A stretch of DNA of 64,000 nucleotides from Escherichia phage 235Ecol030PP, in the sequence record PP355091.1; one strand, given 5' to 3'. Below, in pieces: positions 39,068 through 39,822 of the stretch. Position 1 is the stretch's first letter, and each line of letters opens with the position of its first letter. The notes under the pieces are model-generated. The model worked only from the letters and a program-made list of their open reading frames with translations. It did not search any database and was not told where the DNA came from. The position numbers were made by a program, and so were the translations under genes.

Positions 39068-39616
39068 ACCCAAGAAAACATCTACTGATCGTTGATACCA
39101 CTGCAAATCCAAATAACCATTACGCACATTAAACTGATAGAACATATGACAAGGTGGTAATGCCATATATTTAAGTTCAGCTGGATTCCACGCAGAAACA
39201 ATTTGACGCCTATCATTTGGCAGTTTTTTAATACGATCAATAACTTCTATAATTTGATCTACACCACCAAAATCACGCCACTGTTTTCCATAAATTGGAC
39301 CAAGTTCACCGCTATGGTATCCTAAATCTTTTGCTTGATTTTCGTAATTTTCATCCCAAACTGTTTTGCCTTGGATTAACGAATCATGTTGAATTAATCG
39401 CAAATCATTGACATTTGTGCTTCCCGATAAAAACCAAAGCAGCTCAGCAATGCAAGCTTTCCAGGCGAGCTTCTTAGTTGTTACTGCAGGAAAACCTTTA
39501 GTTAAATCCCAGCGTAATTTAGTACCGAACAAAGCAATTGTTCCTGTGCCTGTTCGGTCATCGGTTTCGTAGCCATTTTCCAGGATATCTTTAATTAAAA
39601 ATTGGTATTGTTTCAT
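39068..39616 (-). CDS. td: Thymidylate synthase, exon 1
   Basis: From ATG 39616 (MKQYQ...); exons total 286 aa as in T4 TS. Confidence 0.88.
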
Positions 39617-39822
39617 TAGTTCATCCAAGAATATGTAGAAGGATATTTGGCAAAGTTAGGCTTATATCCTAATTTAACCATTTGTTTTGCTTTGCGAGTA
39701 AATCCTAAAGAACGCTCACCTTTAAGATATTGTTTTGGTGTCATAGGCCCTTGATGCATCTGCCGACAAATAAAAAGGGCCATAGCGTTAGGAACATCCT
39801 TAACTTTTAATTTATTGCTCAT
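39616..39822 (-). CDS. Hypothetical 68 aa basic protein inserted between frd and td
   Basis: ATG overlaps frd stop (ATGA) and its stop overlaps the td ATG (TAATG). Confidence 0.5.

Follow-up and report, generated by a model that had tools for sequence, protein, structure and literature searches.

In phage T4 the genes for dihydrofolate reductase (frd) and thymidylate synthase (td) overlap directly, and the question raised by Escherichia phage 235Ecol030PP (PP355091.1) is what a 68-codon open reading frame (ORF) is doing between them. We analyzed a 64,000-nucleotide (nt) stretch of this genome, referred to below as the window. All genes of the locus lie on the minus strand, in the order gene 32 (42026..42931), several small ORFs, frd, the 68-codon ORF, and td exon 1. 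The segment is of T4 type (Tequatrovirus), and its closest DNA match is Escherichia phage D5505 (99.0%). Taken as a whole, including how the gene arrived, how it is translated, and what it does, the explanation that we consider very likely is that the ORF is a non-essential accessory gene in a variable frd-td slot of T-even-type phages. The features on which the argument turns are as follows.

39819..40400, minus strand: frd (dihydrofolate reductase), T4-type allele as far as the stop codon, with 96.4% identity to its T4 counterpart.
39819..39822, minus strand: ATGA overlap, with the ATG of the 68-codon ORF (39822-39820) over the TGA of frd (39821-39819).
39616..39822, minus strand, stop codon included: 68-codon accessory gene (PHROG 9550), identified from the ORF list, the PHROG match, and the ratio of nonsynonymous to synonymous divergence (dN/dS).
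39614..39618, minus strand: TAATG overlap, with the TAA of the 68-codon ORF (39618-39616) over the ATG of td (39616-39614).
39068..39616, minus strand: td exon 1 (thymidylate synthase), ATG start at 39616, 95.3% identical to T4.
39561..39822, minus strand: putative Dhakavirus-type recombination patch, consisting of the 68-codon gene and the first ~56 nt (codons 1-18) of td, as judged by identity to JS10.

In the T4 record (NC_000866), with frd at 145109..145690 and the end of td at 145112, the two genes share 4 nt directly and no ORF separates them, in agreement with the original prediction for this locus. An alignment of T4 with the window shows that exactly 204 nt are missing from T4, and an AATGA repeat flanks these in the window. 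The ORF itself is 207 nt long and is read from 39822 to 39616; the original prediction gave its coordinates, sequence, and ATGA and TAATG overlaps correctly, and the strand is minus. It had also spoken of an "in-frame insertion," which suits the 204 nt of the insert but is loose wording, since the ORF, frd, and td are all in different frames.

By comparison with its homologs, the ORF is a real gene under purifying selection. Its product matches PHROG 9550 over the full length (E = 1.3e-45, 154.5 bits, residues 1-68 on profile positions 1-68 of 68). A tblastn search with the protein found 237 phage records, 134 of them at 90% identity or above; more distant matches were found in Klebsiella phages (~80%), Enterobacter phage CIP9 (68%), Serratia phage 4S (60%), and phAPEC8-like Phapecoctaviruses (~43%), and homologs at 30-45% identity occur in other phage groups. 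Clustered at 50% identity, the family forms about 10 real clusters, and at 90% it forms about 40; a search of viral contigs with a narrower alignment returned nine loci. Among 15 close (T4-like) homologs, 24 residues are invariant, and pairwise dN/dS of the ORF was 0.04-0.28 for all pairs with an estimable synonymous divergence (dS).

The gene is already catalogued, and well over 100 genomes list it as a hypothetical protein. The identical protein is carried by 332 public contigs and is labelled "hypothetical protein" throughout, bar a "DUF4858" label; records of the PHROG 9550 gene include those of Escherichia phage D5505, Shinka, fPS-65 (g232c), and MN04_00225. The DUF4858 label, which is that of the Shinka record, is unsupported, as none of 23 family members matched DUF4858 at E ≤ 10; the one paper that a search on the term listed concerns Bacteroides. 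Another label, "flagellar biosynthesis protein," has no support in the present data either. Literature searches on DUF4858, td.1 (see below), and frd-td variability found nothing on the 68-codon gene. The window protein had no match in Pfam-A at E ≤ 1. One apparent family match, the 1402-residue eukaryotic tandem-repeat protein P0026, was spurious and was discarded. The ORF has no paralog in the window, and foreign base composition was set aside as an indicator (guanine-plus-cytosine fraction 0.358 in the ORF and 0.361 in the window). Rfam found the td group I intron alone over 38000-40500 and no structured RNA in the ORF; a structured RNA element at the ORF was likewise rejected, with no Rfam match and no excess structure upon RNA folding (z = -0.24).

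Two copies of the gene deserve separate mention. In JS10 (NC_012741) an intact 68-codon gene at record positions 145281-145487 carries no annotation, and the record shows an apparent 200-nt frd-td gap. In the viral contig IMGVR_UViG_2938479101_000007 (locus positions 893-1097), only 33 codons are open (MSNKLKV...MTPKKIS*); this may be a pseudogene by frameshift or else an error of assembly.

We asked how this slot is filled among Tequatroviruses, using a 136-nt query over the T4 junction. The query matched 514 records, 382 of them over at least 80% of its length. Most of these longer matches are split into two pieces ~552 bp apart, and the split matches hold a 412-bp insert coding a 115-residue protein of PHROG 1928, called td.1 in the T6 record and RB32ORF229c in RB51. 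The td.1 allele is found in 363 phage records, including T2, T6, RB68, RB51, and AR1, and the 68-codon gene in ~132-135 records. Truly direct, single-piece junctions number ~27 among the 60 best records, of which roughly 15 are T4 entries; other isolates with a direct junction are vB_EcoM_112, RB55, RB59, FL12, FL18, HY03, SG1, G2133, and JEP6. From these three record counts, the alleles divide roughly into 70% td.1, 26% 68-codon gene, and 5% empty. The assumption that frd-td is a conserved direct junction is not supported: the junction is direct in ~27 of ~514 Tequatrovirus-type records, mostly T4 and its laboratory derivatives. The test proposed with it, whether T4 and relatives carry the same ORF, finds no ORF here in T4 and the ORF in ~132-135 records.

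The empty allele of T4 is what would result if the td.1 insert were cleanly deleted between its 8-nt direct repeats (AAATGAAA), and the 5' end of T4 td matches that of RB68, a td.1 phage, at 60 of 63 positions. To judge by these junctions, the T4 empty allele looks derived from the td.1 allele. The insert in its intact form is located as follows.

RB68 locus L029, 771-1182: td.1 insert, 412 bp, flanked by AAATGAAA repeats.

The origin of the 68-codon gene in the window is best read from its flanks. Compared with the Dhakavirus JS10, the window is 80.4% identical in frd and 78.1% in td exon 1, versus 97.1% in the ORF. Within td the break is sharp: codons 1-18 are 98.1% identical to JS10 and codons 19-183 are 75.8% identical. 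The block of high identity thus runs from the frd stop to ~56 nt inside td. Synonymous divergence follows the same pattern, with dS to Dhakavirus of 0.08-0.17 in the ORF, 0.83-1.14 in frd, and saturation in td. In comparison with T4, mismatches in the window number zero over the final 90 nt of frd, 10 over td nt 1-63, and 16 over the 486 nt that follow. Over td nt 1-56, the window is identical to JS10 at 55 of 56 positions, to the ORF-less Dhakavirus UGJNEcP4 at 53, to RB68 at 49, and to T4 at 48. The window shares the haplotype QFLIKDIL of this stretch with all Dhakaviruses examined, whereas T4 and RB68 have QDLIKDIF. Over td nt 57-96 the window matches RB68 at 39 of 40 positions and is again Tequatrovirus-type.

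The ORF and td nt 1-56 thus form a Dhakavirus-type patch in a T4-type background, and we conclude on that ground that the gene was laterally acquired here. On the simplest reading, a Dhakavirus-type patch of ~260 bp (39561..39822) would have recombined into a Tequatrovirus, and the patch indicates that this probably took place during co-infection with a Dhakavirus-like phage.

Acquisition by this phage does not make the gene new. It lies directly upstream of td in Marfa (Marfavirus), CIP9 (Kanagawavirus), Serratia phage 4S, and JS10/JS98-type Dhakaviruses, that is, in four T4-like lineages outside Tequatrovirus, three of which are named genera. In every T4-like copy examined, the ORF stop lies over the td start as TAATG, TGATG, or GTGA. 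The upstream neighbor varies: Tequatrovirus and Dhakavirus have frd there, and a PHROG 1928 gene, or a pair of them, takes this place in Marfa, CIP9, and 4S (the PHROG 1928 assignment was tested for two CIP9 genes and made elsewhere by a shared motif). To judge from this distribution, the link between the ORF and td is old. The original prediction of a recently acquired accessory gene is therefore borne out as to a genuine accessory gene and its lateral import, as a Dhakavirus-type patch, and goes too far as to recency and novelty, given the same linkage in four other lineages. The predicted preservation of a coupled architecture stands, with stop/start overlaps here and in all of those T4-like copies.

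The gene is polymorphic for presence and absence within Tequatrovirus, Dhakavirus, and Kanagawavirus. CIP9, which has it, and IME523, which does not, are 98-100% identical in the flanks, and the ORF is exactly absent between two TGA triplets; the td ATG of IME523 stands at the position of the ORF ATG in CIP9. JS10 has the ORF, and the Dhakavirus UGJNEcP4 has instead a direct frd/td overlap, as do the Mosigviruses MM02 and AV116, VR7, Aeromonas T4-likes, and T5-likes. The ORF-absent state thus corresponds to a clean excision between ATGA/TGA microrepeats, after which td stays coupled to its upstream gene. Separately, we note that the td start is GTG (GTGA overlap) in ORF-bearing Kanagawaviruses, at position 3204 of locus L004 (CIP9) and in loci L020 and L021, and ATG in the ORF-less IME523.

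The arrangement of the locus points to how the ORF may be expressed. It overlaps both neighbors at stop and start (ATGA and TAATG), the layout of a translationally coupled operon, in which reinitiation itself is a prediction. The 25 nt upstream of the ORF are the same 25 nt that lie upstream of T4 td, with no well-placed Shine-Dalgarno sequence, so ribosomes that terminate at the frd TGA are probably needed for initiation. Inside the ORF, neither promoter-like nor terminator-like sites were found. Lacking a promoter, a terminator, and a strong Shine-Dalgarno sequence of its own, the ORF is probably translated by termination-reinitiation from the polycistronic frd-td mRNA: ribosomes would reinitiate at the ATGA after frd and then pass to td at the TAATG. 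The last codons of the ORF (TGG ATG AAC TAA) put GGAT 8 nt before the td ATG. The phAPEC8 homolog (Phapecoctavirus) is preceded by its own strong Shine-Dalgarno sequence, AAGGAG, which supports translation of the family.

The product is a protein of 7.9 kDa with an isoelectric point of 10.26 and 13 lysine or arginine residues versus 2 aspartate or glutamate residues, as basic as had been claimed. An AlphaFold (AF2) model from a 22-sequence alignment (pLDDT, the model's own confidence score, 82.5) has coil at residues 1-11, helices at 13-24, 29-38, and 43-50, and then an extended aromatic tail. K34, G40, M48, and G52 are invariant across the family, and K4, K6, P11, R20, L51, Y53, and P55 nearly so; a lysine-rich N-terminal arm is conserved. 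Pfam, NCBIfam, PADLOC, PDB, and fold searches gave no match to the protein. For PDB sequences this holds at E ≤ 10; for the PADLOC defence models it holds for four family members at E ≤ 1, PADLOC containing no anti-defence proteins. No homing endonuclease (GIY-YIG, HNH) or NUMOD/IENR family of Pfam was found in 23 members at E ≤ 10. Guilt by association was tried and set aside, the neighbors of the distant homologs being unconserved and td not among them. The K-x-K-V N-terminus suggested a ribbon-helix-helix protein, which the predicted three-helix monomer does not favor. Tentatively, and as a weak inference with no homology support, we suggest a small basic binding protein whose partner early in infection may be a nucleic acid or else an acidic protein of host or phage.

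Several observations weigh against this account of an imported, coupled accessory gene or parts of it. The direction of transfer was read from a few genomes. On its left side, the patch ends within ~6 nt of the frd stop and ATGA, a sharpness that may reflect a crossover at microhomology or donor DNA that was later eroded by recombination as far as the heterology border. The distant homologs are not beside td and have no conserved neighbor in common, so that linkage to td may be positional and not functional. Some family members have 2-residue insertions in the turn between helix 2 and helix 3, which argues against a canonical helix-turn-helix. Finally, expression of the ORF is deduced from its sequence context.

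We weighed other explanations against the same data. The one that survives best, and which we nonetheless regard as improbable, is that the ORF is ancestral at the Tequatrovirus slot and that a deletion between the AATGA repeats on either side removed it from T4-type genomes. The 5-nt repeat is present on both sides, the T4 state has the form of a clean excision, the td ATG of IME523 sits where a deletion from a CIP9-like arrangement would put it, and the ORF is linked to td in several T4-like genera with divergence like that of its flanks (Marfa ORF 79% versus td 70%). Against this, the 5' end of T4 td differs from the window at 10 of 63 nt and follows RB68, and T4 has the form of the td.1 allele with its insert cleanly deleted between the 8-nt AAATGAAA repeats. 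Moreover, td nt 1-56 of the window are Dhakavirus-type even when compared with an ORF-less Dhakavirus, and dS to Dhakavirus is 0.08-0.17 in the ORF versus ~1 in the flanks.

A second idea, to which we give little credence, is a functional or mechanistic tie to td, with the protein a partner or regulator of Td or its mRNA, or the gene a preferentially inherited cassette targeting the td 5' end. It is raised by two facts: the gene sits strictly at the td start codon in each T4-like genus, and td codons 1-18 were co-transferred. A td-specific role is conceivable, though unsupported outside T4-like phages. If such a tie were true, the protein would be a new small basic fold without structural relatives.

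Less probable again is that the ORF is an actively mobile selfish cassette, left over from or working with a homing endonuclease or itself targeting the td start, and spreading in a super-Mendelian fashion rather than by ordinary recombination. It would account for a position always exactly at the td start, whatever the gene upstream (frd or a PHROG 1928 gene), for ~56 nt of td co-transferred as in homing co-conversion, and for the sharp left boundary, in a region rich in homing elements (in T4, the td intron with I-TevI, mobE, and segG). At 68 residues, however, the protein is too small for a nuclease, and the 23 members gave no GIY-YIG, HNH, or NUMOD signal; purifying selection acts on a full-length small protein, also in unrelated phages where it lies away from td; and the junction alignments have no inverted or direct repeats beyond microhomology of 3-5 nt. 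The weakest explanation, that the ORF is a chance frame in an AT-rich spacer or an N-terminal extension of td, can appeal to the frequency of short ORFs in AT-rich phage DNA, to the missing annotation in JS10, and to a TTG in the td frame at 39628 (the original prediction had read an ATG there), but it is effectively refuted by the dN/dS values, the 24 invariant residues, the homologs at 30-45% identity, and the fact that the extension would add only 4 codons while all homologous Td begin MKQYQ, here at 39616.

The surroundings of the imported gene vary as well. The interval between frd and gene 32 (40400..41880, minus strand) holds five small ORFs of 81, 80, 100, 133, and 75 amino acids, where the T4 set is frd.1, frd.2, and frd.3. 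The td group I intron (38749..39067, minus strand) is 319 nt long (Rfam RF00028, 73.8 bits); relative to the T4 intron, ~690 nt are gone, including most of the I-TevI homing endonuclease ORF, and the intron of phage Shinka is equally short. In td exon 2 (~38502..38579, minus strand), blastn found no T4 counterpart for part of the sequence coding the Td C-terminus, which suggests that this segment may be mosaic or divergent. The entire 32-frd-td stretch seems to be plastic. Elsewhere among T4-like genera, one or two small genes occupy the space between frd and td, and the one adjacent to td or to the 68-codon gene ends in a common C-terminal motif, GRFxKxGxEIxF; in the FriedrichMiescher record the Tequatrovirus homolog is labelled a "putative homing endonuclease." These small gap genes are located as follows.

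Small frd-td gap genes, other T4-like loci: L003, 2643-2996; L004 (CIP9), 2326-3004; L005, 2624-3004; L024, 1126-1804.
Small frd-td gap genes, further loci: L025, 1108-1804; L026, 1491-1808; L027, 1149-1804; L028, 1117-1801.

What the locus offers is thus modest. The presence of the 68-codon gene here is an ordinary accessory-gene polymorphism of T-even phages, and we see no sign of a new type of system. Of mild interest are three by-products of the analysis: a slot with three alleles, a textbook overlap in T4 that proves rare, and a patch between genera with sharp bounds. The textbook frd/td overlap of T4 is an exception among its relatives, and the frd-td gap is better viewed as an accessory slot with three states (empty, td.1, or the 68-codon gene), whose contents recombine between genera, taking very short flanking tracts along. 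For annotation, the 68-codon gene should be called in records such as that of JS10. It adds one more conserved small phage protein tied to the nucleotide-synthesis operon, and a candidate for host-takeover or anti-defence screens.

With respect to known systems, the window protein is a member of PHROG 9550, and we saw no difference from the family. Free-standing homing endonuclease genes such as segG and mobE sit between conserved T4 genes, are polymorphic, and co-convert their flanks. The 68-codon gene resembles these insertions in lying between conserved genes, in being polymorphic among relatives, and in an adjacent flank that was co-converted; unlike segG and mobE, it has no nuclease domain, is far too small, and belongs to a family also found away from any conserved target. 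Small DNA-binding domains with three helices or a helix-turn-helix (homeodomain, KorA, TrpR-like) were also considered for comparison. A further parallel is td.1, which uses the same slot, is polymorphic for presence and absence, and has short direct repeats (AAATGAAA) at its flanks. The two can occur together, as in Marfa, CIP9, and 4S, in the order frd, PHROG 1928 gene(s), 68-codon gene, td. The proteins are unrelated, however, and td.1 in Tequatroviruses is set off by spacers of 19 and 45 nt with Shine-Dalgarno-like sequences of its own and no stop/start overlap; td downstream of it has its own AAGG Shine-Dalgarno sequence. The T4 overlap, finally, uses the same ATGA after an identical 45 nt of frd as in the window, and the ATG that it shares with the window starts td in T4 and the 68-codon gene here.
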